Assembly (NCBI RefSeq): GCF_003044305.1
Contig: NZ_PZOX01000005.1
Span: forward strand, 387,493-451,492
Length of the DNA stretch: 64,000 nt
Direction: 5' to 3'
Origin: Vitiosangium sp. GDMCC 1.1324
Lineage (GTDB): Bacteria > Myxococcota > Myxococcia > Myxococcales > Myxococcaceae
The notes beneath the pieces were generated by a model. It was given only the letters and a program-made list of their open reading frames with translations. It ran no database searches and was not told where the DNA came from. The translations under genes were made by a program, and so were the position numbers. Shown here one piece after another: positions 1,901 through 64,000 of the stretch; the stretch's first letter is position 1; every line of letters starts with the position of its first letter.

Positions 1901-1914
1901 GATGCCTCGTCTTC

Positions 1915-14904: not shown

Positions 14905-15795
14905 CTAGGCGGCGTATGCACCGATGGTGCCCTCGGGGAACTCCTCGAGGAAACGCGCGCGAGCACGCGGAGTGAAGATGCCGCGTGCCATGTACGCCAG
15001 CAGACGCCGCAAGACGGCGCGCGTCTGATCCACCGCGTGCTCCACCTCGGCGGCGAAGTCGAAGGCGTCGTTGCGGTACAGCTCCTGGAAGCTGAGCTGG
15101 GACCAGGCAGGCAGGGCCTGCATCCGCCCCATGGGGCTGGAGAGATACAACCCCGCCAGGTACAGGCCTCGCACCCACCCATCCACCTGGGCCTTGGTGG
15201 GCGCCTGCTGCAGCGTCTCCTGCGAGGCCAGCCGCACCAGCTCGTAGATGCCCCGGCCGATGCCCTTCACCGGCAAGCCGGCGCTCTTGGTCACCTCGAA
15301 CTTCGAGCGCAGGCGCGGGCTGCCGACCAGGTCCACCCCGTGCAGCTCCCGCAGGTAGAAGAGCGTCTGCGTCCATTCAATCTTCCGGTGCGCGGCGAGC
15401 GCGTGCTCACCCCGGCGCCGGTGGCGCACCACCAGCCTGTCCACGTGCGGATGGAGGGCCCGATCCAGGGACAGGTGGGTGAAGTAGCCGGCCAGCAGCG
15501 CGAGCCCGGCCTCGGTGCCCACCAGCGCTCCGGCGGCCACCAGCTCGGCCATCTTCAGGCCCAGGCCCACTGGCGCCCGCTCGTGGTACAGCCGCGCGAA
15601 GTGGGGCCAGTCCCGCCCACCATGGCAGGAGTGGAGTGCGCGAATCCCCTCGCACAGGGGGAGATCCGGCAACGCCGCGCCGAAGCGCGCGTAGGCCAGG
15701 TCCTCGGTCAGCGCGCGCACGAAGTCCTCGGGGAGCGCTCCCGGGTTGGCGGCCAGTCGCTCGATGGCCGTGAGATGCAGCAGCAACGAGGGCAT
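14905..15795 (-). CDS. zinc-dependent phospholipase C-like family protein
   Basis: N-terminal MPSLLLHLTAIERL... with conserved His residues (HSCHGG, HLSLDRALHPHVD). Start chosen at MPSLL; longer alternatives would overlap the pepA promoter. Confidence 0.5.
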   Translation of the reverse strand: MPSLLLHLTAIERLAANPGALPEDFVRALTEDLAYARFGAALPDLPLCEGIRALHSCHGGRDWPHFARLYHERAPVGLGLKMAELVAAGALVGTEAGLALLAGYFTHLSLDRALHPHVDRLVVRHRRRGEHALAAHRKIEWTQTLFYLRELHGVDLVGSPRLRSKFEVTKSAGLPVKGIGRGIYELVRLASQETLQQAPTKAQVDGWVRGLYLAGLYLSSPMGRMQALPAWSQLSFQELYRNDAFDFAAEVEHAVDQTRAVLRRLLAYMARGIFTPRARARFLEEFPEGTIGAYAA

Positions 15796-15912
15796 GTGTC
15801 GGACGTAGCCAGCACGGCGTGTCATTGCAACGACGGAAAGCTCGACCGTTCTTGCCTGAAACATTCGCGGCGCTACAGTCGCCAACCCCATTTCCAGGAG
15901 CCCGTTTTCCGT

Positions 15913-17496
<1,584 letters not shown>

Positions 17497-42159: not shown

Positions 42160-43569
<1,410 letters not shown>

Positions 43570-43642: not shown

Positions 43643-44845
43643 CTAATCGAGCTCGAAAATCTTCTGCGGGAACTTGTGGAGCTTCTCGGCCACCCCCTTC
43701 TCACCGACCAGGAAGTTGTCACATACCCAGGTGTATGTGCTCGCCGTGGCGTAGGTGGGATGGACGACGATGTTCATGCTCTTCTGGATGGGCATGGTTT
43801 CATCGAACCGGATGAGGGGCCGTTCCACCATGTCGTAGCCCTGTCCATGACAGTGCAACCGCTTTTCCTCGGGCCTGCCATTCTTGCGCATGAACGCGTT
43901 GTAGGACTCGAATATCTCCTTGCACGAAGCACCGGGCTTGAGCTGATTGAGAACGACCTTCTGCGCTTCCAGGACGAAGGCAAATTCGTCCTTCATTTCC
44001 TGGGAGGCCTTGCCCAATACACAGGTCCGGCCCAACTCGGTGTAGAGCCCGCCGGGTCCGTTGTTCTCTATCAGCAGGGTGAACTGGTCCCCCTTCTGGA
44101 TCACCCGGTTCTGCAGGTGGCGGCTGCCAAACACCGCTGACACCCCGACCGGAGCCGACGAACTCAGGAACAACCCCTGCTCGCTGCCCAGGCTGTGTCC
44201 GACCTGTTCGGCGATGGCGGCCACTTCCAGGTCTCGCATTCCGGGCTTGATCGCCTTGAACACGGCTTCCATGGCCACGTCCTGCATGGCGGCGGTGCGT
44301 CGAATGAGCGTCAGCTCCTCTTCGCTCTTGATCGACTTGATCCGATCGACCATGTCGGAGGCATCCACGAACTTCGCCTTGGAGAGCTTGCCTCGCTTGA
44401 GGTAGTCCACCAGGGCAAAAGACATGGCGGCCGTTCCCAGGAGGCCCACCGTCGCTCCGGCGAAACGCCCGAGCGCCTCTTCCGCGAGCGCTGCATCGTA
44501 TTCAGCGGTGTAATACGCGGAAGCGTAGCTCGGCGAGCCCAGGAATCGTGCGGTGCCACGACGCAGACCATCCCCTTCCGGAGGCAGTTCCCGCACCAGG
44601 CCAAACGCGCCCTGTGCGACCACCGTCATCCGATCGTCCTTCGGGAAGATCACGGTCACCGGGTAGCCGTTGGCCGCCGGCACATCGGTGAAGTATTTGA
44701 CGTACCCCCCCATGAAGTCGTTGTTGGCCTGCATCAACAGCACGTCGATGCGGTGTTCGGCCATCGCGGCCCGCACGGCCGCCCAGCGCCGCTCCAACTC
44801 CGCCGTGGAGATGGCTGTGTTTATCCGCTCAGACATGTCAACCAT
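43643..44845 (-). CDS. M24-family metallopeptidase (Xaa-Pro aminopeptidase/creatinase-like)
   Basis: Creatinase_N-like N-domain plus a pita-bread C-domain with metal ligands (HCHGQGYD, EN..). Lies 34 nt downstream of the NRPS TE gene on the same strand. GC ~56%. Confidence 0.8.
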   Translation of the reverse strand: MVDMSERINTAISTAELERRWAAVRAAMAEHRIDVLLMQANNDFMGGYVKYFTDVPAANGYPVTVIFPKDDRMTVVAQGAFGLVRELPPEGDGLRRGTARFLGSPSYASAYYTAEYDAALAEEALGRFAGATVGLLGTAAMSFALVDYLKRGKLSKAKFVDASDMVDRIKSIKSEEELTLIRRTAAMQDVAMEAVFKAIKPGMRDLEVAAIAEQVGHSLGSEQGLFLSSSAPVGVSAVFGSRHLQNRVIQKGDQFTLLIENNGPGGLYTELGRTCVLGKASQEMKDEFAFVLEAQKVVLNQLKPGASCKEIFESYNAFMRKNGRPEEKRLHCHGQGYDMVERPLIRFDETMPIQKSMNIVVHPTYATASTYTWVCDNFLVGEKGVAEKLHKFPQKIFELD

Positions 44846-44878: not shown

Positions 44879-47800
44879 CTATCCCCTGGCCTGCTCCGCA
44901 CTCCGCGCGGCTCCGGTACTGTCCAGGACCGACTGCAAGCGATCCACGAGCTCTCCCAGGTGGGGCTCCCGCAACATCGTGGAATGCGAACCCGAAACCT
45001 CGATGCTCTCGAAAGGCCCCTGCACGAGCCGCTCCCACGCCGGTTGCAACCCGGCGACGGAAGAGGACGCCGCGGGGAGCCCGGACAAGAGCTCTTCGCG
45101 CGCCCGTAGCGTGGTCATCTTCAGGGAACACGGTTTCGGCGCGTAGCCCAGGATGGCTCGTGCGTTGCGCTCGAAATCGCCGAACATCCGCGAGAACGCG
45201 GTGAGGTCGAGATCCTTCTCACCCGCCGCTCGCGCCTGCTCGTGGACGTGCCGCAGCCTGTCCTCCGGCGTCATCTCCTCCAGGAGCAATCGATCCAGGC
45301 GCGCCACCAGCTCGGCACCGCCCACGTCGGCCGCGAACCACAAGAGGATGCCAACGTCGTCGGAGCAATAGTGGTAGGCCTCTGGCGTCCAGCTGTCGAT
45401 CAGGATCAGGTGCTCGACGCTCTCCCCGCTCTCACGCAACTGGCGCGCCATCTCGTAGGCGAAGATTCCTCCCGTGGACCAGCCTCCGAGCAGATAGGGC
45501 CCCCGCTCCTGGACGGAGCGGATCTGCTCGATGTACTTCGCCACCCTCTTCTCGAGGGTCTCGGTGTCACTGTCGCCGAGGCCCGCGGCACGCAGCGCAT
45601 AGATCGGGCGGCCCTCCCCGAGGCGGTTTGCCAGGGGGACGTAGCAGTTCACGTCGCCACCGGTCGGGTGCATCAAGAAGAGAGGCGCCGCGCTTCCCCC
45701 TTCCCGGAGCGCAATGAGCGGCGTCTGCGGCGCGGCGGGGGGCCGGCCCTCACCCAGGACCATGGCCAGACTCTCAATCGTATCCCCGGTCAGGAGGCTC
45801 GAGATGTGGAAGTCCTGTGCGAATTCCTTGCGGATGCGCGCCATCAACCGGACCGCCAGCAAGGAGTGGCCGCCGAGATCGAAGAAGCTGTCCTGAACAC
45901 CAATGGGACGCCTCTGCAACAACTCCTCCCATATCCGCGTCAGGCGTACCTCGGTCGGAGTACGGGGCGCCACATACTTCGAGGTCGTGCTCTGGAGATT
46001 CTCCAGCGCCGGCAACGCTGCCCGGTTCACCTTCCCGTTCGCGGTCCTCGGGAATTCGTCGAGCAGGACGAACGCAGAGGGAATCATGGGGGAAGGGAGC
46101 CGCTTCTTGAGGAACGCGGCAATCTCCTCGGAAGAAGGCCGCACCTTGCCCGGCACCGTGGACGTCATGTAGGCGATGAGACGCTTGTCACCCGAATCGT
46201 CATCCCGGGCGACCACGACGGCATCCTGAATGCTTTCGTGCTCGGTCAGGTTCCGCTCGATCTCCTCGGCTTCGATCCGGTGGCCACGAATCTTCAGTTG
46301 CTGATCGGCGCGCCCGAAGAACTTGACGTCGCCGTTCGGCAGGAAGCACGCCTGGTCTCCGGTGCGGTACATGCGCGCCCCTGGATGAGTGCTGAAGGAA
46401 TCCGGGAGGAAGCGCTCCGAGGTCAGGGTCGGCCGGTTGTGGTAGCCGCGGGCCACGCCCTCACCACCAATGTAGAGCTCTCCGGTGACTCCGGCCGGTA
46501 CGAGCTGGCGGTTCGAGTCGAGGATATAGAACTGCGTGTTGGCAATCGGCTTGCCGATCGTGATCGCGGCGTCGCTCTCCACGCGGGCGGTGGACGACCA
46601 GATGGTCGTCTCCGTTGGACCGTACATGTTGTGGATCTCGCACGGCAGCGAGGAGAGATCCTTCACCAGGGCGGGCGGCAGCGCCTCACCCCCCAGCATC
46701 AGCATCCGCAGGCCATGGAGTGCCTCGAAGGTCTCGGAATCCATCGCCAGCATCCGAGCCATCGACGGCGTGCACTGGAGGTGGGTGACGCGGTGGCGCC
46801 GGATCTGCTCGGCGATCGAATCGCCTGCCTCGCTCGGCTCATTGCTGAGCTCCCGCAGCCGATTCAAGTACGTGAGGTTGGCCAGGACATCCCGGGTATC
46901 GACGCCGAAGTCGATCAGGCAGGCAACCTCATCGACCCCGATGGCCTTCAGGCGGTCGATAATAGGGAGACACGACTCGGGCGTCCCGAAGAGGCCGATG
47001 TTCCCGAAGAAGCGATCCACGGCCTTGGACAGCAGGAAGTCCATATCCTCCTTGGACAGGCTTTCGAACGAGGTCGTCCCCGCGAGTTGCCCCAGAGCGG
47101 CTTTCATCAGGTCCGCGGAGCACCTCAGGTACTCGGCGAGCGGACCGGGGACCTTGCGCCGCACGTAGTCTTCGTCGTGAGCGACGAAGGTGTGCATCAT
47201 CAACGCGATGTGGCCCTGGCCCGGGTGGCCCGCCTCCGCCCACGCCTCGCGGTAGAGCTTCAGGTTCTTCTCCAGCCCCTCGATGTCCTGTCCGAGGAGG
47301 TGGGTCAGAAGCCCGGCGCCGCGCTGCCCCGCCAGCCGGTAGGTCTCCGGGTTGCCCGCCGCGGTGAGGAAATACGGCAGCTCCGCCTGAATGGGACGGG
47401 GCAAGGTCCTGACCTTCGCCTCCTGCCCCGCGCCGCCCGGGAAGTCGAGCGTCTCCCCGCGCCAGAGCCTGCGCACGGTGTCGATCCCCTCGAGCAGGAG
47501 CCGTCTCCGCTCCGCGTAGTTCTGCGGCATGAGCGCGAAGTCGTTCGCGTGCCAGCCGGACGCGAAGGAGAGCGCGACCCTGCCGTTCGAGAGGTTGTCG
47601 ACGATCGACCACTCCTCGGCCACCCGGATGGGGTTATGCAGCGGAATGACGACGCTTCCGGCCCGGAGCTGGATCCGCTTCGTGGCCATGGCGATCGCCG
47701 CGCTCACGACGGACGGGTTGGGGTACGGGCCACCGAAGTCATGGAAGTGCCGCTCCGGCGTCCACACGGCCGTGAAGTCGTTCTGATCGGCGAACCTGGC

Positions 47801-50800
47801 TCCCTCCATCAGGATCTCATAGGAGTTGTCACCGCCGGCGGCGCTCGCGAAATAGAACAGGCTGAAGTCGATGCCTCTGTCGGCCTGTCCGCTGGCCTTC
47901 GGGGCCCGGGACCGGGAAACCGTCGGCGCGAGCTGCCTCGTGTTCTGGATCACGACCCGGAAGCCCCGAGCGAGCGTCCAGAACAGTTCGAGCACGGAGA
48001 TGTCGAACGAGATGCTCGTGACGGCGAGCCAGGTTCCCACGTCGCCGCCGAGGCGCTCGTCCATCCCGGCGAAGAAATTCACGACGTTGCGGTGGGAGAC
48101 CTCGGTGCCCTTCGGTTTCCCGGTGGAGCCCGAGGTGTACAGGATGTAGGCAAGGTGGTTGCTGCGAACGCCCGAGACAGGGTTCGCGATCGACTCTCGT
48201 GCGAGCGACTCCCGGTCCGAGTCGAGGCGAATCCTCTTCACGGGTGCTGCCGCCAGCGTCCGAGGGGCTCCCTCGCCCATGACGAGGACCTTCGCGCCCG
48301 AATCCTCGAGCATGAACGCCAGCCGGTCCTCAGGGTAGCCCGGATCCAACGGGACGTACGCCCCACCCGCCTTGAGGATGCCGAGCAGTCCCACCATCAT
48401 GTCGATGGAGCGATCGATGCAGATGGCGACGAGGACCTCCGGCCCCACCCCCAGCGATTTCAGGCGGTGCGCGAGCTGGTTCGCGCGAGCATTGAGCTCC
48501 GCGTATGTGAGCTGCTCCTTCTGGAAGATCAGCGCCACGGCGTCCGGGGTCCGCTTCACCTGCGCCTCGAACAACTCGTGAACGCACGTGCCCCGCGCAT
48601 ACTCCACCGCGGTGTCGTTCCACTCCACCATGAGCTGGTGTCGCTCCTCGGCGCTCAAGAGCGAAATCTCCGAGACCCGGAGCTTGGACACATCGACGAG
48701 CGGGCGCGCCGGATCACCTTCGAGCTTCTCGAGAATCGCGGTGAAGTACCGCACGTAGCGCTCGATCGTCTCCTGCTTCCACAGCGCTCCGCTGTACATG
48801 AAGAGGAACTCCAACTCTCCACCGGCCTCGGTGACCTCCAGGTTGAGGTCGTACGGCGTGGCCCTGCGCATCATCGGGCGTTCGGTCAACGTGAGCCCGG
48901 GCAGCTGGATCGCCCCCCGCTCCTCCGCCTGCTCGTAGGAGAACATGACGTCGAAGAACGGGTTGTACCCATGGCCGCCCCCCTTCAGACGCTGGAGGAT
49001 GACGCCCAACGGGAAGTCCTGGTGCTCGTTCGCCTCGAGGCAACGCCGCTTCACCTCGGCGAGGAGCTCGGCGAATGTGGCGTCAGCGGAGACCGCGACC
49101 CGCACCGGGAGCGCGTTGACGAACATTCCCACAGCATCCTCGAAGCCCCCACGCTGGCGCCCGTTCTGTGCCGTGCCAATGGTGATGTCGTGCTGCCCCG
49201 TGAGCCGCTGCAACAGCGTGTGGCAGGCCGAGAAGAGGAGCATGTAGAGCGACACGCCATGCTCGCGTGCCCGCTTCCGCAGGAGCCGCGCCGAGCGGCG
49301 CACGCGAACCTCTCCGCCCTCGAAGCACTGCACCGCGGGCCGCGGGAAGTCGAGCCCCAGCTCGAGGCGCGGCACCTCATCCGATAGGCGGTCACGCCAG
49401 TAGCGTTCCTGTGCCGCGGAGGCCTCGCTGAGCAGGAACTCCCGCTCCCACGTGGCATGCTCGCGGCCCTGCTTGACCACGGGAGGGAGTGCCTCGCCTT
49501 TGTACAGCGCCACGAGCTCCCGGACCACGATCGAGCCCGTGGTGCCGTCAGAGGTGATGTGGTGCAGGTCGATGGCCAGCACGTGCCGCTCTTCCGCCAC
49601 CCGGAGCAGTCCTGCTCGGAAGAGAGGGGCGCTCGAGAGGGTGAAGGGCCGGATGAACTGCTGAAGCCATCCGTCGATGTCCCCGTCCACGGCGCGTTCG
49701 AGCTCGAATGGGACCGTCGGATGGACGCGCTGGACGAGCCGACCGTCGTCGCACAGCACGAAAGAGCTGCGCAGGGCTTCGTGCCGCCGGATGATCTCCC
49801 GGAAGCACGCCTCCAGGCGGACGTTATCCAGCGCGCCGTGGATCTCCCAGGCACCGTAGAGGTGATAGGCCAACTCCCCGTCCGGGAACTGGCACTGGAA
49901 GTAGAGCCCCCGTTGGATGGAGGACGTCGGGTATTCCACCACCGCGGTCAGGTCGTTCGCCGCCGAGGGCGTCGAAGCGGCGGTCGGGGCCACGTCACCA
50001 GAGCCGAGCCGCGGTGAAGGCGGCGGCGCGAATCCGGCCGCCATCATCTCGTCGATGCACTCCTTCAGCGCCGTGACGAACAGACGGATGTCGTCATCCG
50101 TGTGGGCAGTGGAGAGATAGAGGTTTCGGCCCTCCCACACATAGACGCCCTTGCACAGGAGCCGGTGATAGAGGAGCTCCCAGTCGCCCTTGAGCTCGAT
50201 GCGGAACAGCGAGCCGAAGTGCACGAAGCGCACGGGCGCGCCGACCCGCTCGCAATGCTCGTTGAGCTCCCGCACGATCGCGGCCGTCCGCTCGTTGAGC
50301 CGCTCCTGCAGCCCGGCCCCCTCGCTCCGGAGGTGCCGCAACACCGCGCCCGCCGCTGCCAGCGATAGCGGATGGTGGCAGAAGGTTCCAGCGACGAAGG
50401 TGTTCTGCACCTTGGGATACGAGTCGTCGCCAAAGCGCCAGGCGCCACCGTCCACGGCATCCATGAACCGCTGAGTACCGGCCACGATGCCGATCGGCAG
50501 CCCGCCTCCGATGATCTTGCCGTAGGTGACGAGATCCGCGTGGACGCCGAAGTGCGCCTGGGCGCCTCCCGGGCCAATGCGGAAGCCGGTGATGACCTCG
50601 TCGAAGATCAGGGCCGCCCCCGCATCCGCGGTGATACGGCGCAGCTCGTGGAGGAAGCTCCGAGGCTGGAGATCGGGACGTCGGCTCTGCACGGGCTCCA
50701 CCAGCACCGCCGCGAGCTCCGAGGCGCATCCGCGAATCGCCTCGAGCGAGGCAGGATTGCCGTACTCGAGCACCAGGATGTCGGAGACCGTGCCTCGGGT

Positions 50801-53800
50801 CGTACCAGGTGCCAGCGGGGCACCCTGCGCGGTGCCTTCGGAGTCGGCCACCGCCAGAACCCCGTCGAAGGTCCCGTGATACGAGCCGCTGAATATCACC
50901 ACCTTCGAGCGACCCGTGATGGCGCGTGCCAGGCGCAGCGCCACCATCACCGCTTCGGTGCCGGTGTTGTAGAAGGCAACCCGCTCGACCCCGGTGGCCT
51001 CGACGATCATCTTCGCCACTTCACCCGGCAGCGGTGTCATGGGTCCGAGCGGTGCGCCGCGGCCCAACTCCTCGACGACCGCGTCGGCGATGAACGCCGG
51101 GCGGTGCCCGAAGAGATACACTCCGAAGCCCATCGTCACGTCGACGTATGCGTTGCCATCGACATCCCAGACCCTGCCTCCTTCCGCGCGGACGACCTGG
51201 AGCGGATAGGTGATCTCCTTCCAGGAGGGCCGGAACCCGGCGACTGCACGGTTGTTGGCGACCGTCGCCCGGGTCTCCTCGGTGAGGCGCTTCGAGCCCG
51301 GCGTGCGAGCCGTGTAGTCCCGGATGAGCGTCTTCAGGAACTCGCCCTGTCGGGCCTGCAGTTCGGGATCACGCTTCGTGTTGATTCTCCGGTACGGCAC
51401 GAAGGCCGCCGGAGCCCCGGCGCGAGCCACGGGCGCGCTCACCTTTTCCCTGGCGGCGAGCACCGGAGCAGGCCGCACCGCGGGCTCCTTCCCGGCCAGC
51501 GGTGCGGGCGCGCGTGTCCCCGAGGCGTCGTCGCCACGAGCCCGCCGCAGCAGCGCGAGTTGTTCCGTGACGATCCGCTCGACACGTTCCCGAGAGCTGG
51601 CCCCGTCGCTGGGGTGACGCAACAACGCGAGCTGATCCACGACGATCCGCTCGAGCGTCCCCTGCGAGTCGGCGCCGTTCACCGCCGACTCCGCCACCAC
51701 CGGCGCGGTCACCTCCAGCGCGAGCGACGGTTCCTGCGCGGGCTCGGGCGGCAGTTCCCTGTCCAGGAACGACGCGATCTTCCTGACCGTCGACAACTCC
51801 TCGTGGAAGGAATTGACGGGGATCAGCACTCCGAAACGCTTCTCGATGACCTTCCGGAGGCCGAACAGCGCGAGCGAGTCCACCCCGAGCTGGAACAGAT
51901 CATTGTCGACGGGGATCTCGGAGGGCGGGTCGCCCGTGAACCCTCCAACCATCTCGCAGAGCTCGACGAGGATCCTGGCGTCCCGAGCTGCCGTCCCCGA
52001 AGACGCGGGGCCTCTGGACTCAACGGGCGGATGCCGTGGAACGGTCGGTGCCGCGAGCGGCGCGGCCTCCGGGGCCTGGGCCGGGGCCTCCGGTGCGAGC
52101 AACGGGCGCCTGGTGGCCGGAGCCTCGAGCCAATACCGCTCCCGCTGCCAGGGATACGCCGGGAGCGGCACCCGCCGCCCACCCGCGGGGAAGACACGCG
52201 ACCAGTCGATCCGCGCCCCCGTGGACCAGAGGCTTCCCAGCGCCTCGAGCACGCTCACCGGTTCCTCACGGCCAGCGCGCAGCGACACGATCAGCGCCGG
52301 CTCCGCGTCCGGCAGGCAGGCCGTCACCAGGCCGAGCAGCGTCGACTTCGGGCCCACCTCGACGAACGTTCCCGCTCCGGCTTCGTGCAGCGCTTTCACC
52401 CCGTCCGCGAAGCGAACCGCCTCACGCACGTGGCGCACCCAGTAGCCCGGCGTACTCACCTCGTCCGAGACCCGCTTCCCACTCAGGTTGCTGACCAGCG
52501 AAAGCGACGGTCGCCGGTAGGTGACCGACTCGGCCACGCGCTCGAACGCTTCCAGCATCGGCCCCATGAGTGGCGAGTGGAATGCGTGAGACACGCGCAA
52601 CTGCCGGGTACGCACCCCACGTGCGGCGAATGATGCGGCAATCGCGTGCACGGATTCCGCGACGCCCGCGATCACCACCTGCTCCGGCCCGTTGATCGCG
52701 GCGATCGACACCGAGGCCACATGCGATGCCAGTGCGGCGGCAACCTCGGACTCCGGAGCGGAGATGGACACCATCGCTCCACCAGCCGGCAGCGCCTGCA
52801 TGAGCCGGCCGCGAGCCGCCACCAACCGCACCGCGTCTTCGAGTGAAAACACACCTGCCACACAGGCGGCCACCAGCTCGCCGATGCTGTGACCCGCCAC
52901 CAGCTCCGGTTCCACGCCCCACGAGCGCCACAGCGCCGCGAGCGCGTACTCCAGCGCGAACAACGCCGGCTGGGTGTACGCCGTCTGGTCCAGCAACGCG
53001 GCCTCGGCGCTGCCCGGCTCGGACCACATAACCTCGCGCAACGGCCGTTCGAGCTCCCGATCGAACAGTGCAATGCACGAGTCGAGCGCCTCACGGAACG
53101 CAGGCCACGCCGCGGAGAGCCCACGACCCATTCCCGGAACCTGTGCGCCCTGCCCCGTGAACAGGAAGGCGAGCTTGCCGCGCGAGGCGTTGGCGGTGCC
53201 GCGCACCGCGCCCTGAGGGAGCTGTCCCTGCGCCGCGGCCTCCAACGCCGCCCGAAGTGTCTCGCGCGAGGTCGTCATGACCGCGAGCCGATGCTCCATG
53301 GGACTGCGTGTCGTCGCCAGGCTGAAGGCAACATCACCGAGGCCCAGCTCCGGGTGCGCATCCACGTGGTCCCGCAGCCGTGCCGCCGCGGCGCCCAGGG
53401 CCTCCGCGCTCCTGGCCGACAGCACCAGAAGCTCCGCCGGCCGCTCGGGCGCAGCGGGCGCGAGCTCCGCCGCTGGCGCTTCCTCCAGCACCACATGTGC
53501 GTTGGTGCCACTCAACCCGAAGGAGCTCACTCCCGCGAGACGCGGCCTGTCCGTCCGCGGCCAGGATACCGGCTCCGTCGCCAGGGAGAGCGCGGACCCT
53601 TCGATCTCGATGTGCGCGTTGAGCGTGCGGAAATTGAGGTTCTTCGGAATGCGCTCCTGCTTGAGCGCGAGCGCCGCCTTGATCAAGCCCGCGACACCCG
53701 CGGCGGCCTCGAGATGGCCGATGTTGGTCTTCACCGCGCCCAGCACACAGCTCGAACGATCGGGCCGCGCCGCCCCCAGCACCGCCCGGAGCGCCTCGAC

Positions 53801-54853
53801 CTCGATGGGGTCACCCAACGAGGTTCCCGTCCCGTGGGTCTCGACATAACCAATGGCCCCGGCTTCGACACGTGCGCGCTGCAAGGCCTCGCGCAGCAGC
53901 GCCTCCTGGGCCAGCACGTTGGGCGTCGTGAGCCCCGTCGACCGGCCATCCTGGTTGATGGCCGAACCGCGAATCAGCGCCCAGATCCGGTTTCCATCCC
54001 GCCGCGCGTCGCTCAATCTCTTGAGCGCGATCAGACCGCAGCCCTCCCCCCGAACAAAACCATTGGCCGAGGCATCGAAGGTCCGGCAACGACCATCGGG
54101 CGAAAGCGCCTGGGTATGCGCCAGGCCTTCCATCGTGTCGGGGGAGAGAAGCATGTTCACGCCTCCCGCCAACACCAGATCACTCTCCCGGGTGCGCAGA
54201 CTGCGACAGGCGAGATGAATGGCCACCAACGACGACGAACACGCCGTATCGACAGTCAGGCAGGGCCCCTGCAACCCCAGGGTGTAGGACAGCCGTCCGG
54301 CGGCAATGCTGAGCAGGTTGCCGGTGGTGCTGTACGCGTCCTGCTCGTCATGCGGCTGACGCGCGACGGTGTCGGCGTAGTCGCTGGAGCAGGCGCCGAC
54401 GAACACGCCGGTGCGGCTCCCTTCGAGCGACCCCGGCGGAACACCAGCGTCCTCGAGCGTTTCCCAGGCGACTTCCAGCAGCAGGCGATGCTGCGGGTCG
54501 AGCGACCGGGCCTCTCGGGGAGCAATGCCGAAAAACGCGGCGTCGAAGTGGTCCACGGCCTCGGTGAGCAGCCCCGCCCAGCGAGGCACATCCTCGCCAG
54601 GTCGGGCGCCCACCAGCGCCCAGCGCGGCTCGAGAGGCTGGACCGCGTCCCGGCCCTCCTCGAGCAACTTCCAGAACGTCTCCGGACTGTCGGCGCCGCC
54701 AGGAAAGCGACAGCCAATGCCTACGATGGCGAGCGGCTCGGTCTGCTCCTGTTCCACCTGTTCGAGAGAAGCAAGCCGCTCCTCCAGCCGCCGGATGATG
54801 ATGGCTGCCTTCTTCAACCGATCCTGCTGCGAGCTAGAGCTGGAGTTATTCAT
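44879..54853 (-). CDS. hybrid PKS/NRPS: KS-AT(malonyl)-ACP-aminotransferase-C-A[monooxygenase insert]-PCP-TE
   Basis: Domain motifs seen in the translation: KS (DTACSSS, HGTGT), AT (GHSIGE, HAFH), ACP (GVDSL), class-III PLP aminotransferase, C (HHITSDG), A core motifs A3 (YTSGSTGKPKG) to A10 (NGKVNR) with an LLM-class flavin monooxygenase between A4 and A5, PCP (GGHSL), TE (GWSTGG). ATGA overlap with the upstream PKS gene. Confidence 0.9.
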   Translation of the reverse strand: MNNSSSSSQQDRLKKAAIIIRRLEERLASLEQVEQEQTEPLAIVGIGCRFPGGADSPETFWKLLEEGRDAVQPLEPRWALVGARPGEDVPRWAGLLTEAVDHFDAAFFGIAPREARSLDPQHRLLLEVAWETLEDAGVPPGSLEGSRTGVFVGACSSDYADTVARQPHDEQDAYSTTGNLLSIAAGRLSYTLGLQGPCLTVDTACSSSLVAIHLACRSLRTRESDLVLAGGVNMLLSPDTMEGLAHTQALSPDGRCRTFDASANGFVRGEGCGLIALKRLSDARRDGNRIWALIRGSAINQDGRSTGLTTPNVLAQEALLREALQRARVEAGAIGYVETHGTGTSLGDPIEVEALRAVLGAARPDRSSCVLGAVKTNIGHLEAAAGVAGLIKAALALKQERIPKNLNFRTLNAHIEIEGSALSLATEPVSWPRTDRPRLAGVSSFGLSGTNAHVVLEEAPAAELAPAAPERPAELLVLSARSAEALGAAAARLRDHVDAHPELGLGDVAFSLATTRSPMEHRLAVMTTSRETLRAALEAAAQGQLPQGAVRGTANASRGKLAFLFTGQGAQVPGMGRGLSAAWPAFREALDSCIALFDRELERPLREVMWSEPGSAEAALLDQTAYTQPALFALEYALAALWRSWGVEPELVAGHSIGELVAACVAGVFSLEDAVRLVAARGRLMQALPAGGAMVSISAPESEVAAALASHVASVSIAAINGPEQVVIAGVAESVHAIAASFAARGVRTRQLRVSHAFHSPLMGPMLEAFERVAESVTYRRPSLSLVSNLSGKRVSDEVSTPGYWVRHVREAVRFADGVKALHEAGAGTFVEVGPKSTLLGLVTACLPDAEPALIVSLRAGREEPVSVLEALGSLWSTGARIDWSRVFPAGGRRVPLPAYPWQRERYWLEAPATRRPLLAPEAPAQAPEAAPLAAPTVPRHPPVESRGPASSGTAARDARILVELCEMVGGFTGDPPSEIPVDNDLFQLGVDSLALFGLRKVIEKRFGVLIPVNSFHEELSTVRKIASFLDRELPPEPAQEPSLALEVTAPVVAESAVNGADSQGTLERIVVDQLALLRHPSDGASSRERVERIVTEQLALLRRARGDDASGTRAPAPLAGKEPAVRPAPVLAAREKVSAPVARAGAPAAFVPYRRINTKRDPELQARQGEFLKTLIRDYTARTPGSKRLTEETRATVANNRAVAGFRPSWKEITYPLQVVRAEGGRVWDVDGNAYVDVTMGFGVYLFGHRPAFIADAVVEELGRGAPLGPMTPLPGEVAKMIVEATGVERVAFYNTGTEAVMVALRLARAITGRSKVVIFSGSYHGTFDGVLAVADSEGTAQGAPLAPGTTRGTVSDILVLEYGNPASLEAIRGCASELAAVLVEPVQSRRPDLQPRSFLHELRRITADAGAALIFDEVITGFRIGPGGAQAHFGVHADLVTYGKIIGGGLPIGIVAGTQRFMDAVDGGAWRFGDDSYPKVQNTFVAGTFCHHPLSLAAAGAVLRHLRSEGAGLQERLNERTAAIVRELNEHCERVGAPVRFVHFGSLFRIELKGDWELLYHRLLCKGVYVWEGRNLYLSTAHTDDDIRLFVTALKECIDEMMAAGFAPPPSPRLGSGDVAPTAASTPSAANDLTAVVEYPTSSIQRGLYFQCQFPDGELAYHLYGAWEIHGALDNVRLEACFREIIRRHEALRSSFVLCDDGRLVQRVHPTVPFELERAVDGDIDGWLQQFIRPFTLSSAPLFRAGLLRVAEERHVLAIDLHHITSDGTTGSIVVRELVALYKGEALPPVVKQGREHATWEREFLLSEASAAQERYWRDRLSDEVPRLELGLDFPRPAVQCFEGGEVRVRRSARLLRKRAREHGVSLYMLLFSACHTLLQRLTGQHDITIGTAQNGRQRGGFEDAVGMFVNALPVRVAVSADATFAELLAEVKRRCLEANEHQDFPLGVILQRLKGGGHGYNPFFDVMFSYEQAEERGAIQLPGLTLTERPMMRRATPYDLNLEVTEAGGELEFLFMYSGALWKQETIERYVRYFTAILEKLEGDPARPLVDVSKLRVSEISLLSAEERHQLMVEWNDTAVEYARGTCVHELFEAQVKRTPDAVALIFQKEQLTYAELNARANQLAHRLKSLGVGPEVLVAICIDRSIDMMVGLLGILKAGGAYVPLDPGYPEDRLAFMLEDSGAKVLVMGEGAPRTLAAAPVKRIRLDSDRESLARESIANPVSGVRSNHLAYILYTSGSTGKPKGTEVSHRNVVNFFAGMDERLGGDVGTWLAVTSISFDISVLELFWTLARGFRVVIQNTRQLAPTVSRSRAPKASGQADRGIDFSLFYFASAAGGDNSYEILMEGARFADQNDFTAVWTPERHFHDFGGPYPNPSVVSAAIAMATKRIQLRAGSVVIPLHNPIRVAEEWSIVDNLSNGRVALSFASGWHANDFALMPQNYAERRRLLLEGIDTVRRLWRGETLDFPGGAGQEAKVRTLPRPIQAELPYFLTAAGNPETYRLAGQRGAGLLTHLLGQDIEGLEKNLKLYREAWAEAGHPGQGHIALMMHTFVAHDEDYVRRKVPGPLAEYLRCSADLMKAALGQLAGTTSFESLSKEDMDFLLSKAVDRFFGNIGLFGTPESCLPIIDRLKAIGVDEVACLIDFGVDTRDVLANLTYLNRLRELSNEPSEAGDSIAEQIRRHRVTHLQCTPSMARMLAMDSETFEALHGLRMLMLGGEALPPALVKDLSSLPCEIHNMYGPTETTIWSSTARVESDAAITIGKPIANTQFYILDSNRQLVPAGVTGELYIGGEGVARGYHNRPTLTSERFLPDSFSTHPGARMYRTGDQACFLPNGDVKFFGRADQQLKIRGHRIEAEEIERNLTEHESIQDAVVVARDDDSGDKRLIAYMTSTVPGKVRPSSEEIAAFLKKRLPSPMIPSAFVLLDEFPRTANGKVNRAALPALENLQSTTSKYVAPRTPTEVRLTRIWEELLQRRPIGVQDSFFDLGGHSLLAVRLMARIRKEFAQDFHISSLLTGDTIESLAMVLGEGRPPAAPQTPLIALREGGSAAPLFLMHPTGGDVNCYVPLANRLGEGRPIYALRAAGLGDSDTETLEKRVAKYIEQIRSVQERGPYLLGGWSTGGIFAYEMARQLRESGESVEHLILIDSWTPEAYHYCSDDVGILLWFAADVGGAELVARLDRLLLEEMTPEDRLRHVHEQARAAGEKDLDLTAFSRMFGDFERNARAILGYAPKPCSLKMTTLRAREELLSGLPAASSSVAGLQPAWERLVQGPFESIEVSGSHSTMLREPHLGELVDRLQSVLDSTGAARSAEQARG
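44954..45706 (-). other. thioesterase domain (approx.)
   Basis: GWSTGG within an alpha/beta-hydrolase context. Confidence 0.7.
45749..45961 (-). other. PCP (approx.)
   Basis: FFDLGGHSLLAVRL. Confidence 0.65.
45974..48571 (-). other. NRPS adenylation domain interrupted by LLM-class flavin monooxygenase (MOx ~46889..47881) (approx.)
   Basis: A3 YTSGSTGKPKG and A4 FDISVLE lie upstream. The insert FSLFYFASAAGG...IDFG is luciferase-like. A5 NMYGPTE, A6 GELYIGG, A7 YRTGD and A8 GRADQQLKIRGHRIE lie downstream. Confidence 0.75.
48659..49936 (-). other. NRPS condensation domain (approx.)
   Basis: HHITSDGTTGS. Confidence 0.7.
50039..51376 (-). other. PLP-dependent class III aminotransferase (AMT) domain (approx.)
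   Basis: GSE-aminotransferase-like motifs (DVTMGFGVYLFGH; FDEVITGFRIG; TYGKIIGGG, the Lys region). Arrangement is like MycA/McyE AMT domains. Confidence 0.7.
51749..51976 (-). other. ACP (approx.)
   Basis: LFQLGVDSLALFGL. Confidence 0.6.
52214..53161 (-). other. AT domain, malonyl-type (approx.)
   Basis: GHSIGELVAACVAG; HAFHSPLM. Confidence 0.7.
53474..54742 (-). other. KS domain (approx.)
   Basis: GIGCRFPGG...DTACSSSLVA...ETHGTGTSLGD...NIGH. Confidence 0.7.
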
Positions 54854-57800
54854 GCGAGCACCTCGAACTTCTCGTCGATCAGTCGCGCCAACTCCGCCTG
54901 CGACATGTCCTCGACCTCATTGGAAGAATCAGTGTGGGTCGGCGATGACTTCGCGGGGGGTTCCTCGCGTACTCCACGAGCCAGGTGCCCGCTCAGTGCC
55001 ACCACGGTGGGGTAGGTCCACAAGAGGCTCGCCGGTGCGCGAATGCCCAGCGCGGCCTCGATACGGTTGCGCAACTCCAGACCCATCAGCGAGTCCATGC
55101 CCAGGCTGGAGAGAGGAGCCGCGACGTCGATCTTCCCTTCGGGGATGCGCAGCACCTGCGAGACCTGCCCCCGGAGGAATTCCTGGAACAGCAACGCTCT
55201 CGCGCCCGGCTCGGCAGCGGCAATCCGTTCGAGCAGGTTCCTGTCCCCGACGGGCCGTCCGGCCCGCTGCTCGGCCATCAGCCGCGACAACATCCGCGAG
55301 GACGCCGCCGCCTGGTTGAACCCCACCCACTGCCGCAGATCAAGCGGCACCACTCCCACCTGCGCACGGTCGCTGTCCAGCAGGCGCGCCAGCACGGACA
55401 GGCCCTCGGCGGGGGTGAGACTCTTCATTCCACGAGAGGCCAGCCGCGCACCGCGGCCATCCTGCGCGGCGGCCAGACCCACCTCCGAGAACGCGCTCCA
55501 GTCGATGCTCAGCGCCGACAGGCCCTGCGCCCTTCGGTGGTGAGCCAGCGCATCCATGAAGGCATTGGCGGCGGCGTAGTTGCCCTGACCCGCCGAGCCC
55601 ATGAGGCCCGCCACCGAGGCGTGCATCACGAAGAAGTCCAGCGGCGCCTCCCGGGTGAGCTCGTGCAGGTGCAAGGAGCCCTGGACCTTGGGCGCCATGA
55701 CCTTGCGCAAGCGCGTCGGGTCCTGTTGCTGCAACATTCCGTCGTCCAACAGCCCCGCGGCGTGGACGACCCCGCGCAGCGGCATCCCCGACGCGACCAC
55801 CTCGTCGAGAACCCGCACGAGCTGCGCCCGATCGGCGACGTCGGCTTTCGCCACCGTCACACGGACGCCCCGGGCGGAGAGCGCGTCGACAGCGGTCTTC
55901 TGCTCCGGGCTCGCGGCCCCCGACCGGCCCATCAGCACGAGGTGGCCGGCCCCCTGCTCCGCCAACCACCCGGCCACGCTCAGACCGAGTCCGCCCAGAC
56001 CGCCGGTCACGAGGTAGGAGCTGTCGCGGCGAATCGTGGCGCGGGACTCCGCCGGCACGCGGACCCGGACCTCCGGATCCTCCAACATGAGCACGAGCTT
56101 CCCGAGATGCTGCGCCTGCGCCATCTTCCGGAACGCATCGGCGACCTGGGAGATCGGCAGGGTCGCGATGGGCGGAGGAGTGAACGCACCCGCGGAGATC
56201 AGGCCGAGCATTTCCTCGAAGAGCGCACGGACCCGCGCCGGCTGCTTGAGCATCATTCCCCGCAGGTCCACCAGCGAGAACGACAGGTTGCGCAGGAACG
56301 GCTGCAGACCAAGCCGGTTGTTCGCGTAGTAGTCGCGCTTGCCCAACTCCACGAAGCGACCGTGGTCGCGCAGGAGATTGAAGCTCTTGTTGATGAACTC
56401 GCCCGAAAGCGAGTTGAGCACGACATCCACCCCCTCGCCGCCCGTCCACTCGCGCACATCCGCGACGAACCGGTCCGAGCGGGAATCGCTCACGTACCGC
56501 ACCCCCAACGACTCCAGGTAGGCACGCTTCTCGGGCGTACCGGCCGTCGCGTAGACCTCGGCCCCTACGTGCCGCGCCCACTGCACCGCGGCCAGGCCGA
56601 CACCGCCGGTCGCCGCGTGGATCAGCACCCGCTCCCCAGGCTGCAGGCGGGCCACTCTGTCCAGGGCATACCACGCCGTCAGATACGCGATCGGCATCGC
56701 GGCCGCATCGGTCGCCGAGAGCCCCGAAGGCCGTGGCAGCACCAGCGTGGCCGACGTGGTGACGTGAGAAGCAAAGGCTCCTCCCGCCAGAGCGATCACC
56801 GGTTGGCCCACCGCGAGACCGCTCACGCCCTCGCCCACGGCGACGATACGCCCGGCGCACTCGCCCCCGAGCACCAGCGGTGCGTTGGGCTCCCCCGCCG
56901 TGTCATGAGGCATCACGCCCAGCGCCAGCAGGACGTCGAGGAAGTTGAGTCCCGCCGCCTCGACGGCGATCTGCACCTCGCCCCGACCCGGAGCGCGCCG
57001 CTCCGCGACACGGAGCGCCAGGTGATCGAGCACGCCCGGCTTGTCGATCTCCAGCCGGAAGGGCCTGTCACCCGGGGGCTCGAGCTTCTCCCGGCGCTCG
57101 GTCTCGGGCAGCCGGCGGACGAGCCGGGCCACGAGCCGCTCACCCCCACGCAACGCGACCTCCTCTTCGGCGTCGTCTCCGAGCAACTCCGCCAGCAGGG
57201 CGCCGACCTCGCCTTCCGGACGAGCCGGATCCAGGTCGACGCGACCACACCGCAGCTCCGCGTGCTCCAGGGCGATGACGCGACCCAGTCCCAGAAGCGC
57301 GGCCTGCCCCACGGAGACATCGCCGGCACCAGCGGCCTGAGCGCCGCGGGTCAACAGCCACAGACGCGGCGCATCTCTCCACCCCATACCGGCCAGGGCC
57401 TGCACCGTGTAGAGCACGCTGTCACAACCGCGAGCCAGTGCCGTCTCGATGGCGCCGGAGTCGAGCTCACGTCCCCCATCAAGGCTGCCGAGGTGCACGA
57501 CGGCCGTCGGAGCCTGTCCGCCGAAAGCATCGGCCAGGAGGGCTCGTACGCCAACGGTGCTCGTATCGTTCCCGGTCGCATGGACGACGGCATGGCCAGC
57601 CGCCTCCAGCGCCGAGCGCAACGAGTGGCCGAGTCCATCGCCCCCGCCCAGCAGCAGCCACCGACCCGCTTTGACTCTGGCGGTGGCCGGGGCCGCGGGC
57701 TCCCAGGTGAGATCCAGGAACCAGTCGTCTTCTTCCTTCCGACGCGAGCCGCCTTCCAGTCGCTGCACCACGAGCCCGGAAATCTCGGCGACCCGAGCCC

Positions 57801-60800
57801 CCGTGCTGTCGACCAGCCAGAAGTCGGCACTCCGCCGCTCGGGTGCCTGTTGCCCGGCGCTCACGCTCCGCACATGGCACCACAGCTCCCCCGAAGGCCG
57901 CTGGAACAGCCGCAGCGAGCCCAGCTCCACGGGCACCCACGGCGTCGTCTCTCCGCTGTCGGCGAGCGCGACGGCCATCACATGGAAGCACGCATCCAGC
58001 AGCGCCGGATGCAGCCGGTACGCCGCCGAGGAGCCGGCGAGCTCGGGCAGCCGCACCCGTCCCAGCGCCTCACCCTCACCTCGCCACAGCTCGGCAAGCC
58101 CCTGGAACGCCGGCCCGTACTCGAGCCCCATCCCGGTCAGTGCCGAATAGGCCGCCGCGGCGGGCACACTGGCTCCCAACCGGGCGCGCAGCGCCGCCAG
58201 ATCCAACCCCACAGGGGCCTCGGCGTGCTCCGCCCGACGCAACGTGCCGCGGGCATGGACTCGCCAGGACGCACGGCCGGCGTCCGACATCCGGCTCGCG
58301 ACCTGGAAGTGCAGCCGTCCCGGTTGTTCCTCGGTCGTCACCATCTGCACCGGCACCGCCGCATCACCCGCGAAGGCCAGCGCCTGCGCCAGCACCACGT
58401 CGGTGATCTGGAGCGGGCCATCACCCAGGTCCTCGGCCCCGGACGACAGCGCCATCTCCAGGTACGCCGCTCCCGGAAACACGACCGCCCCCTGCACCCG
58501 GTGATCACCGAGCCACGGCAGCCGCTTGAGATCCAGCGTCGTCTCCCACAGGCGCGTGCTCGTCTCGGTTGAAAGCGTCTGGGACTCACCCAGGAGCGGG
58601 TGGCCTCCTGAATGAGCGCGACGCTTGGAACCCGAGGCGCGCTCGGCCGGCACTTCGAGCCAGTACCGATCCCACTGCCAGGGATAGGTCGGCAGCGGCA
58701 CACTCTGGCCTCCCGCGGGGAACAACCGCTCCCAGGTCACCGGATAGCCCTGCACCCACAGCGCGCCCAGTGCCTCCAGCATCGACGGGCGCTCGTCCTG
58801 CCCACGCCGCAGCGAGCCCACCGCGGCCCCCTCGCGCTCCGACGCCCGCCGGATCTCCTCGACCGAAATCGTCAGGATCGGATGCGGGCTCATTTCCACG
58901 AAGAGCCCATGACCGTCGTCCAGCAGCGCTTGTACCGCTTCGGCGAAGCGCACCGGCTGTCGAAGGTTGTCCGCCCAGTAGCTCGCCCGCAGTTCCGGAC
59001 CCTCCACGGTCGCACCCGTCACCGTCGAGCGCATCGACACCGCCGCTTCCAGCGGCTCGAGCCCGCCGAGCGCGGCCAGGAGCTCCTCACGCAACGGGTC
59101 CACCTGCGGGCTGTGGCTGGCGACGTCCACCTTCACCCGTCGGCAGAACACGCCCTTCGCCTCCAGCGCCGACAGCACCTCCGAAAGCGCCGCCGGATTG
59201 CCCGACAGCACCGTCGAGCGGGGACTGTTGCTCACCGCCACGCCCAGCCGGTCTTCGTAGCCCCGGAGCGCGACCTCGGCCTCGGCCAGCGACAGCTCGA
59301 CGAGCGCCATCTCGCCCTGACCACTGATCCGCCGCAACAGGAGGCTGCGCCGGCAGATGATCGCCACGGCATCCTCGAGCGACAAGGCACCGGCCACATG
59401 CGCGGCCGCGACCTCGCCCATGCTGTGTCCCACCACCGCGTCCGGCTCCACCCCCCACGAGCGCCACAGCGCCGCGAGCGCGACCTCCAGGGCGAACAGC
59501 ACCGGCTGCACCACGTCGATGTGGTCGAGGCGCGAAACGGTCTCATCGGCGGCGAGCTCCGAGAGGAGCGACCAACCCGCTTCGGCCTGAATGGCCCGGT
59601 CGCATGCCTCCAGCGCGGCGCGGAAGACGGGCTCCTGGGCCAGGAGTTGCCGACCCATCCCCACCCACTGCGAGCCCTGGCCAGGGAATACGAAGACCAC
59701 CTTCGGCACACCGCCGGCGGAGGTGCGACCCCGCACGGCCCCCGGCGGAATCTGGCCCTGTGCCGCCGCATCGAGCGCCGCGTGCAACGCCTCGCGGGAG
59801 TTCGCCGCCACCGCGAGCCGGTGCTCCATCGGGCTACGCGTGGTCGCCAGGCTGAACGCCACTTCCCCCAGCCCCAGTTCCGGGTGCGCATCCAGGTGCG
59901 CCGCGAGCCGCCCCGCCACACCATCCAACGCCGTCGAGCTCCGGGCCGACAGCACCACGAGCTCGGACGGACGCGCGAGCAACACCGGCGCGAGCACCTC
60001 CTTCGGCGCTTCTTCCAACACCACGTGGGCGTTGGTACCGCTCAGGCCGAACGAGCTCACGCCCGCCCGCCGAGGCGAATTCCACTCCGGCCATGGCATG
60101 CTCGTGCGCGTCACGGACAACGGCAGTTCGCCCCACGAGAGCCGGGGGTTCAGTGTCTGCGCGTGGAGGTGCGCGGGGAGCCGCCCTTCCCGAAGGGACA
60201 GGACGACCTTCAGGAGCCCGGCGATTCCCGCCGCATACTCGAGATGGCCAATGTTCGTCTTCACCGACCCGAGCAGCAACGGCTCGGCGGAGGTCCGCCC
60301 GGGGCCATACACCACGTTCAGGGCTTCGGCTTCGATGGGATCGCCCAGGGGCGTACCCGTGCCATGCGCTTCGATATAACCCACCGACGACGGGGCGCAG
60401 CCCGCATCCTCCAGGGCTCGCCTCAGCACGGCTTCTTGCGCACTTCCATTCGGCACGGTCAGACCACTGCTCGCGCCGTCATGGTTGATCGCCGATCCTC
60501 GAATCAGGGCCAATACCCGGTTGCCGTCCGCACGGGCCTGACTGAGTCGCTTGAGAACAACGACAGCACACCCCTCGCCGCGCCCGTAGCCATCTGCGTC
60601 CGCCGAGAACGTCTTGCAGCGTCCATCCGTCGCCAGCGCGCGGCTCTTCGAGAGCCACACGAAGGTGCTCGGCGACAGCATCAGCGACACTCCGCCGGCC
60701 AGGGCCATGGTGCACTCCCCGGAGCGCAAACTCTGGCAGGCCTGATGAATGGCCACGAGGGAGGACGAACAGGCCGTATCCACCGCGAAGCAGGGCCCTT

Positions 60801-63800: not shown

Positions 63801-63870
63801 TTTCGTTCGACTGCGTGTCGTACTTGTCAGCGACTTTCGAATAGCTGGCGGCGGGAATGTTCGAGATCAT
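54850..63870 (-). CDS. type I PKS: N-terminal SAM-methyltransferase-like domain, AT(malonyl)-ACP loading region, then KS-AT(methylmalonyl-like)-DH-ER-KR-ACP
   Basis: MT motif I [13 protein letters not shown]1 GHSLGE/HAFH. ACP LGFDSL. KS DTACSSS/HGTGT. AT2 [12 protein letters not shown] HPLLG...[48 protein letters not shown]. C-terminal docking helix. ATG at 63870 (the ORF track gives a TTG at 63876). Confidence 0.9.
   Translation of the reverse strand: [3006 protein letters not shown]
54982..55209 (-). other. ACP (approx.)
   Basis: [14 protein letters not shown]. Confidence 0.65.
55477..56019 (-). other. KR (approx.)
   Basis: [18 protein letters not shown]; LDD motif; YAAANAF. Confidence 0.7.
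56083..57009 (-). other. ER (approx.)
   Basis: [29 protein letters not shown]. Confidence 0.7.
57757..58605 (-). other. DH (approx.)
   Basis: HPLLGESQ...[17 protein letters not shown]. Confidence 0.65.
58747..59694 (-). other. AT, methylmalonyl-like (VASH) (approx.)
   Basis: [23 protein letters not shown]. Confidence 0.6.
60007..61290 (-). other. KS (approx.)
   Basis: [31 protein letters not shown]. Confidence 0.7.
61357..61599 (-). other. ACP (loading) (approx.)
   Basis: [14 protein letters not shown]. Confidence 0.6.
61777..62724 (-). other. loading AT, malonyl-type (approx.)
   Basis: [22 protein letters not shown]. Confidence 0.65.
63007..63870 (-). other. N-terminal class I SAM-dependent methyltransferase-like domain (approx.)
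   Basis: [18 protein letters not shown]...[12 protein letters not shown]. Confidence 0.6.
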
Positions 63871-63882
63871 CGTCAAGGCTCC

Positions 63883-64000
63883 TCACTGAGCTACTTTCGC
63901 ATTCAGCCAAACCGCGATGTCGGCAATCACTCGCTCGGTTCCAGGCTCGTCCACAATCCAGTGGGCGTTGTTGGCATATTCCAGGTAATCGCCGACGCGC
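63883..64000 (-). CDS. C-terminal fragment of an upstream gene (unknown function; likely part of the same biosynthetic operon)
   Basis: In-frame translation ...RVGDYLEYANNAHWIVDEPGTERVIADIAVWLNAKVAQ*. Its stop is 13 nt before the PKS start. The gene continues beyond the window. Confidence 0.3.
   Translation of the reverse strand, partial: RVGDYLEYANNAHWIVDEPGTERVIADIAVWLNAKVAQ

Follow-up and report, generated by a model that had tools for sequence, protein, structure and literature searches.

A MycA-type aminotransferase domain in a compact hybrid assembly line of Vitiosangium that probably makes a small beta-amino acid amide

We analysed a 64,000-nucleotide stretch of the Vitiosangium sp. 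GDMCC 1.1324 genome (RefSeq assembly GCF_003044305.1, contig NZ_PZOX01000005.1, positions 387,493 to 451,492; hereafter the window) with a focus on an aminotransferase (AMT) domain embedded in one of its polyketide synthase (PKS) genes. The window is GC-rich (~68%) and carries two very long minus-strand open reading frames (ORFs) in its right-hand third, here called gene A (54850-63876, 3008 aa) and gene B (44879-54853, 3324 aa). ORF and Pfam analysis showed that gene B encodes a hybrid of PKS and nonribosomal peptide synthetase (NRPS) with the order ketosynthase (KS), acyltransferase (AT), acyl carrier protein (ACP), AMT, condensation (C), adenylation (A) interrupted by a monooxygenase (MOx), peptidyl carrier protein (PCP) and thioesterase (TE), written below as KS-AT-ACP-AMT-C-A(MOx)-PCP-TE. 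The protein is 100% identical to an annotated "type I polyketide synthase" of this strain. An initial annotation, made from the sequence without database searches, had placed a class-III aminotransferase dependent on pyridoxal 5'-phosphate (PLP) at 50039-51376, after KS-AT-ACP and before the C domain. Both the interval, which lies on the minus strand and encodes gene B residues 1160-1605 (446 aa), and the domain order were borne out by Pfam and by alignment to the MycA AMT structure 6KFM.

The PKS part of gene B, module 2 of the proposed assembly line, has KS, AT and ACP ahead of the AMT (all coordinates in genes A and B refer to the minus strand). Its KS (53630-54739, residues 39-408) keeps the cysteine in DTACSSS together with the HGTGT and NIGH motifs. 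The AT (52289-53167, Pfam residues 563-855) carries the malonyl-type signatures QTAYTQ, GHSIGE and HAFHS; the use of such motifs to separate malonyl from methylmalonyl specificity is an established rule. The ACP (51719-51961) contains GVDSL with Ser993 and is the carrier on which transamination would occur. The Pfam domain table lists no ketoreductase (KR), dehydratase (DH) or enoylreductase (ER) anywhere in gene B. Since module 2 lacks all three, a beta-keto thioester is the expected substrate on the ACP, and the beta-keto to beta-amino conversion on the ACP that the initial annotation had predicted is well supported by this domain content, from which the chemistry itself is deduced.

AMT domains are the usual PKS/NRPS route to beta-amino groups, for example in iturins and microcystins. 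The gene B domain is recognized by Pfam as Aminotran_3 (PF00202, residues 1217-1576; E 1.6e-50, 172.5 bits against a cut-off of 30.5). In a search of the PDB, the MycA AMT (6KFM/6KFR/6KFU) matched residues 9-444 of the 446-residue query, practically end to end (E 1.1e-167, 562 bits). By this alignment, the boundaries of the interval nearly coincide with those of a MycA-type AMT domain, and the match is far beyond chance. The domain is 58% identical over 440 residues to MycA/ItuA-type proteins of Bacillus and 69% identical to a PKS/NRPS of Cystobacter fuscus; a database search with the AMT alone returned mainly short or fragmentary proteins with a top identity of 61%. The Schiff-base lysine that the initial annotation had singled out for checking, Lys1446 (nt 50516-50518), lies in the motif TYGKIIGGG (residues 1443-1451), which is identical in MycA. 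The other PLP-binding residues are also kept, namely GTEA (1298-1301), Tyr1325 (in YHG), Glu1386 (in EPV) and Asp1418 (in FDEV). A 12-residue insertion, DGGAWRFGDDSYPKVQNTF, and an N-terminal extension of ~50 residues are common to this domain and MycA and absent from the glutamate-1-semialdehyde aminomutase (GSAM) structures 5HDM, 3K28 and 2E7U. Both features are described for assembly-line AMT domains, of which an insertion of ~12-14 residues compared with GSAM is typical (PMC3870968). Every defining feature of the MycA-type family that can be tested on sequence is present. We consider it probable, at roughly 0.75, that the domain is a functional MycA-type AMT in module 2 of a compact two-gene, four-module assembly line that works along the route proposed below.

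Two alternatives concern the AMT domain itself. It could be an inactive relic or a purely structural element, so that the beta-keto acyl chain reaches the C domain unchanged; loss of the catalytic lysine or of PLP-binding residues had been named in advance as the sign of this. All five key sites (K1446, D1418, Y1325, E1386 and GTEA) are instead intact and invariant in both full-length orthologues, which share the Pfam set of gene B and come from a JGI metagenome (84% identity) and from Corallococcus terminator (72%). The AMT is also more conserved than most of the gene B protein: identity to the two orthologues is 88% and 80% for the AMT and 91% and 82% for the MOx, compared to 41-68% for the linkers. 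This high conservation, together with the invariant key residues, argues for purifying selection on what would be an active domain, and makes the relic explanation very improbable. We judge it equally far-fetched that the domain performs other PLP chemistry, such as a GSAM-like aminomutase reaction. This idea draws on the best curated NCBIfam matches, which are the HemL (glutamate-1-semialdehyde 2,1-aminomutase) models, but these score 276 bits against a cut-off of 398, as would be expected of a diverged, embedded relative. The best free-standing GSAM in the PDB search reached 192 bits, ~370 bits below the MycA AMT, and the AMT-specific insertion and N-terminal extension, as well as the fusion between ACP and C domain, likewise speak against an aminomutase.

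The linker between ACP and AMT contains a tandem pair of LERIVxxQLALLR elements (~51540-51655, residues 1067-1104) that is kept in all three orthologues, while the rest of this linker is poorly conserved. The pair, which stands ahead of the AMT, may be a docking or dimerisation element.

Downstream of the AMT, gene B encodes a single NRPS module. The C domain (48686-49936, residues 1640-2056; Pfam E 2.8e-94) has the motif HHITSDG. The A domain (46031-48571) is split between its core motifs A4 and A5: the AMP-binding match covers residues 2095-2304 and resumes through 2941, and a Bac_luciferase domain (46931-47827, residues 2343-2641; Pfam E 2.1e-50) sits between A4 (FDIS, Asp2284) and A5 (NMYGPTE, 2742). 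This inserted MOx belongs to NCBIfam TIGR04020, the MupA/Atu3671 family of natural-product luciferase-like monooxygenases (LLM), with 447.8 bits against a cut-off of 244. The module ends with the PCP (residues 2970-3030, GGHSL) and the TE (residues 3057-3306, GWSTGG), which together occupy 44936-45946. The ten positions of the specificity code of the A domain read DILQMGMIWK. The canonical glycine code is DILQLGLIWK, from which this one differs by two conservative changes, and the pattern DILQxGxxWK is common to all 22 MOx-interrupted A domains that we retrieved.

A MOx-interrupted glycine A domain followed by a TE is the terminal arrangement of the myxothiazol and melithiazol assembly lines (PMC11342130, PMC13548996). 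The mechanism described for these two lines, given as a proposal in PMC13548996, is that the glycine alpha-carbon is hydroxylated, that the chain then departs as a primary amide and that glyoxylate is removed by the TE (PMC11342130, PMC13548996). The last module of gene B looks MtaG-like and, as far as architecture and specificity code can tell, shares the features of MtaG and MelG: it is a myxobacterial terminal module of the form C-A(MOx)-PCP-TE with a luciferase-like monooxygenase inside the glycine A domain. The known modules differ in that their released amide caps a bis-thiazole polyketide and in that they have no AMT. By analogy, release as a primary amide is likely here, though not certain. 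The initial annotation had likewise called this a downstream MOx-amide release module, and the glycine code, the split A domain and the PCP-TE pair agree with that description, the release step being deduced from them.

Gene A would supply the first part of the chain. It encodes a loading module of the form methyltransferase (MT)-AT-ACP and a fully reducing module 1 of the order KS-AT-DH-ER-KR-ACP. A class-I MT dependent on S-adenosylmethionine (SAM) forms its N-terminus (63022-63876) and is fused to the loading module, in which a KS-AT-type linker, an AT with malonyl signatures (GHSLGE and HAFHS) and an ACP follow. Neither a decarboxylating KSQ nor a GNAT domain was found in this loading module by domain table and motifs. 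The AT of module 1 shows the methylmalonyl signatures IDVVQ, GHSMGE and VASH. Directly upstream of gene A lies the 3' end of an alpha/beta hydrolase gene (63883-64000, minus strand), the first gene of the cassette, of which the window edge leaves the last 118 bases. We reconstructed the remainder from orthologous loci: in both of them (L001 and L002) an alpha/beta hydrolase gene stands directly upstream of the gene A orthologue, and the C-terminus of its product matches the translated portion. The hydrolase, which has the motif GHSMGG, only weakly resembles lipases and type II thioesterases. The complete cassette of alpha/beta hydrolase, gene A, gene B and M24-like hydrolase was found in three genomes only (Vitiosangium, C. 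terminator and a metagenomic myxobacterium).

The loading module recalls systems in which O-methylation of malonyl-ACP starts the chain and a partner esterase later hydrolyses the ester (PMC8302727). Like Art28/Art9 of aurantinin and BioC/BioH, it appears to combine a SAM-dependent MT at a malonyl-loading ACP with the lack of KSQ and GNAT and with an adjacent alpha/beta hydrolase. What sets it apart from those systems is the fusion of its MT to a cis-AT loading module. On this analogy we hypothesize that the chain may be initiated by a malonyl-ACP methyl ester as in aurantinin.

Together, these domains suggest the following route. The MT-AT-ACP loading module would prime the line with a malonyl-derived unit, which the MT possibly keeps as a methyl ester, by analogy with Art28/BioC. 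Module 1 would then add a methylmalonyl unit with full reduction, and module 2 would add malonate without reduction, leaving a beta-ketoacyl-S-ACP. The AMT would convert this to the beta-aminoacyl-S-ACP by a ping-pong reaction between PLP and pyridoxamine 5'-phosphate (PMP), with glutamine as the probable amino donor, as for MycA. That enzyme aminates a beta-ketoacyl thioester with glutamine as donor, according to the passage of PMC3870968 that cites Aron et al. 2005. The C domain would next acylate Gly-S-PCP with the beta-aminoacyl chain, and the embedded MOx would hydroxylate the glycine alpha-carbon, after which the N-C(alpha) bond would collapse and the primary amide leave. Glyoxylate left on the PCP would then be removed by the TE, in line with the proposal for MtaG/MelG. 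The assembly line would thus probably yield a small beta-amino acid amide, predicted to be a 3-amino-4-methyl-alkanamide, R-CH2-CH(CH3)-CH(NH2)-CH2-CONH2. Retention of the starter carboxyl would make R either CH2-COOCH3 or CH2-COOH. For the candidate products, the calculated [M+H]+ values are 203.139 (methyl ester amide, C9H18N2O3), 189.123 (free acid, C8H16N2O3), 171.113 (delta-lactam, C8H14N2O2) and 145.134 (3-amino-4-methylhexanamide, C7H16N2O, which would arise from an acetate starter).

Several points weigh against this model. The starter is its weakest step, because the MT scores far below the cut-off of its closest curated family (BioC, TIGR02072; 57.7 bits against 184.95) and because the hydrolase, which we considered as a BioH, matched no BioH model in NCBIfam and PDB searches; in the PDB, the matches to the MT are generic class-I MTs. 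The likeness to MtaG/MelG was drawn from published descriptions; a database search with the termination module was dominated by multi-module NRPSs, and MtaG and MelG did not appear among its matches. The chemistry of the whole pathway is read from its genes. In the literature on Vitiosangium GDMCC 1.1324 and C. terminator we found no product assigned to the cluster. Finally, a metagenomic relative, P0159 (locus L083, 6928-18162 and downstream), has the order FAAL-KS-AT-ACP-AMT-C-A(MOx)-PCP followed by further PKS/NRPS modules. Since its MOx-interrupted glycine A domain stands mid-line, such a domain is not always chain-releasing.

P0159 also opens an alternative in which the AMT works as proposed, yet the last module retains the glycine or alpha-hydroxyglycine and the TE releases an N-acyl-glycine-type acid, or the MOx hydroxylates elsewhere. 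In P0159, AMT-C-A(MOx)-PCP is followed by KS-AT-KR-ACP and NRPS modules, so that a MOx-modified glycine is apparently passed on, and amide release is itself only proposed in PMC13548996. In gene B, however, the module is terminal and has its own TE, as in myxothiazol and melithiazol (PMC11342130, PMC13548996), and both the glycine code and the MOx show high conservation. We therefore regard a retained glycine as unlikely, while giving it some weight. A different question is whether the beta-amine stays free. If the starter carboxyl is kept as a methyl ester, the C-3 amine would be delta to the ester carbonyl and could close a six-membered lactam, spontaneously or aided by the alpha/beta hydrolase, to give a (6-oxopiperidin-2-yl)acetamide, whose ring the M24-like hydrolase of the cassette might later open. 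The MT-AT-ACP loading module with its malonyl-type AT and no KSQ or GNAT decarboxylase speaks for this, as does BioC being the closest curated family of the MT. Further points in favour are the weak relationship of the M24-like protein to ectoine hydrolase and creatinase, whose substrates are small cyclic or amidine compounds, and the occurrence of M24-like relatives in operons with amidohydrolases and carboxylate transporters. The weak MT assignment (57.7 bits against a cut-off of 185) counts against the lactam, for which the retained carboxyl is an assumption, and we consider it rather improbable. The free beta-amino amide, released by the MOx module, remains our preferred product.

We compared gene B with its best 120 matches from a database of 5.8 billion proteins, assigning domain order by BLAST with the individual domains. 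Among these relatives, KS-AT-ACP-AMT-C-A(MOx)-PCP-TE was found only in gene B and its two orthologues, and two others (P0159 and P0220) have AMT-C-A(MOx)-PCP without a TE. In ~35 of the 120, the monooxygenase directly follows the AMT (AMT-MOx-C), and many have AMT-C-A-PCP without a monooxygenase, in the style of the iturin family. Like MycA and ItuA of the mycosubtilin and iturin pathways of Bacillus, gene B has its AMT between the ACP of a KR-less PKS module and a C domain, and the chemistry expected of it, conversion of beta-ketoacyl-S-ACP to beta-aminoacyl-S-ACP, is the same (PMC3870968). McyE, which the initial annotation had named beside MycA, would be a further parallel. MycA, however, is primed by an acyl ligase with a long fatty acid and passes its chain to a heptapeptide NRPS for assembly of a cyclic lipopeptide, whereas the line ending in gene B comprises a short polyketide (starter plus two extensions) and one amino acid module whose residue is predicted to be cleaved off. 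Modules of the puwainaphycin/microginin type also unite KS-AT-ACP-AMT and a TIGR04020-type monooxygenase in one protein, but there the monooxygenase comes right after the AMT and outside the A domain. Such AMT-MOx architectures are expected to make alpha-hydroxy-beta-amino acids (PMC4219810). Since the MOx of gene B lies inside the glycine A domain of the next module, its reaction is expected to differ.

Full-text literature searches retrieved no pathway described as having both an AMT and a MOx-interrupted A domain, in agreement with the initial annotation, which had not recognised this pairing from any characterised pathway. We conclude that the AMT is a familiar domain in an orphan cluster that joins known parts in an undescribed combination. 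The novelty lies in the setting, a very short line with an MT-bearing malonyl loading module, predicted in-line transamination and predicted monooxygenase-mediated amide release, three devices that are individually uncommon but known. If the prediction holds, the product would be a small polar beta-amino amide of roughly 145-200 Da, a type of compound missed by standard natural-product screens. With its ~21 kb, the whole cluster could be expressed directly in a heterologous host, so that the prediction is cheap to test.

Directly downstream of gene B, the cassette ends with a gene for an M24-fold hydrolase of the "Xaa-Pro peptidase family" (43643-44845, minus strand), which all three cassettes have in common (79-93% identity). 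We aligned it to Pyrococcus furiosus prolidase (1PV9), using what we take to be the metal-ligand numbering of that structure. The canonical ligands D, D, H, E and E are replaced by E260, E270, H333, H362 and C375, so that one of the five is unchanged, and this altered set is invariant in the three orthologues. We considered whether the gene is specific to the cluster and rejected this, as at least 80 relatives stand in catabolic-looking operons without PKS or asnS. These are the best 80 of 170 confirmed metagenome matches (65-87% identity), and a scan of their surroundings found a PKS or asnS beside none of them. On contigs with long flanks, the neighbours are genes for acyl-CoA-ligase-like (AMP-binding), Amidohydro_2, D-2-hydroxyacid dehydrogenase, LLM and TctC proteins. 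The occurrence of relatives in non-PKS operons points to a widespread family of small-molecule hydrolases from which the cassette recruited a member.

Convergent with the M24 gene lies asnS, which encodes an asparagine-tRNA ligase (AsnRS; 42169-43569, plus strand; NF003037, 673.6 bits against a cut-off of 414). Its motif 2 reads GPAFRAE and not GPTFRAE, with the alanine codon at nt 42862-42864, and the same change is found in the metagenomic orthologue. The threonine at this position was present in all 79 diverse AsnRS that we compared. In this set, 121 positions show at least 95% conservation, and the window AsnRS departs from them at this one alone. Solved AsnRS structures have Thr or Ser here and archaeal-type aspartyl-tRNA synthetases Ala or Ile. 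At the nucleotide level, the window resembles the metagenomic locus through the M24 gene and asnS (2.8 kb, 87%) but no further, and in two versions of the metagenomic genome asnS, M24 gene and PKS genes stay together while the genes beyond asnS differ. In C. terminator, an IS66 transposase occupies the position of asnS. Since asnS adjoins the cassette in two of the three lineages, it is possibly linked to it. In the window, the genes beyond asnS (response regulator, YebC, RuvC) are unrelated housekeeping genes.

Asparagine and the predicted product have the motif H2N-CH-CH2-CONH2 in common, which makes self-resistance through AsnRS conceivable. A speculative and on balance doubtful extension of our model is that the product is a small asparagine mimic targeting asparaginyl-tRNA formation and that the adjacent AsnRS is a self-resistance copy. 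On this tentative reading, the AMT would supply the amine and the MOx module the carboxamide of the shared motif, and the skeleton could be viewed, with the same reserve, as asparagine whose alpha-carboxylate is swapped for an alkyl or carboxyalkyl chain. It would then be the AMT that makes an amino-acid antimetabolite out of a polyketide, and the link to the variant AsnRS, if real, would add a target hypothesis. Two observations weigh against a resistance copy, namely that Myxococcus xanthus is reported to have an AsnRS (PMC4206432) and that the GC content at third codon positions (GC3) of asnS is native-like at 0.92. Either self-resistance or just a trait of the lineage may explain the variant. 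The best genome matches of asnS are from Lysobacterales (70-75% identity), with no myxobacteria among the best 80 loci listed. We dropped a recent acquisition from Lysobacterales as an explanation, given the native-like GC3, the AsnRS reported in M. xanthus (PMC4206432) and the fact that this comparison covers the best 80 loci only.

Elsewhere in the window we noted several further genes. A gene at 30858-33350 (minus strand) encodes an 830-aa bacterial homologue of the eukaryotic Major Vault Protein, with Vault repeats and an MVP shoulder domain (E 2e-45). It is neighboured by a matrixin-type (M10) metalloprotease with a peptidoglycan-binding domain (33358-34677, minus strand), near which lie genes for a DksA/TraR zinc-finger protein (35654-36313) and a RimK-like ATP-grasp protein (36300-37364). 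Towards the left end, we found a caspase-domain (Peptidase_C14) protein (1744-3546, plus strand) and an M17 leucyl aminopeptidase that is extended by ~320 residues at its N-terminus (15037-17496, plus strand).

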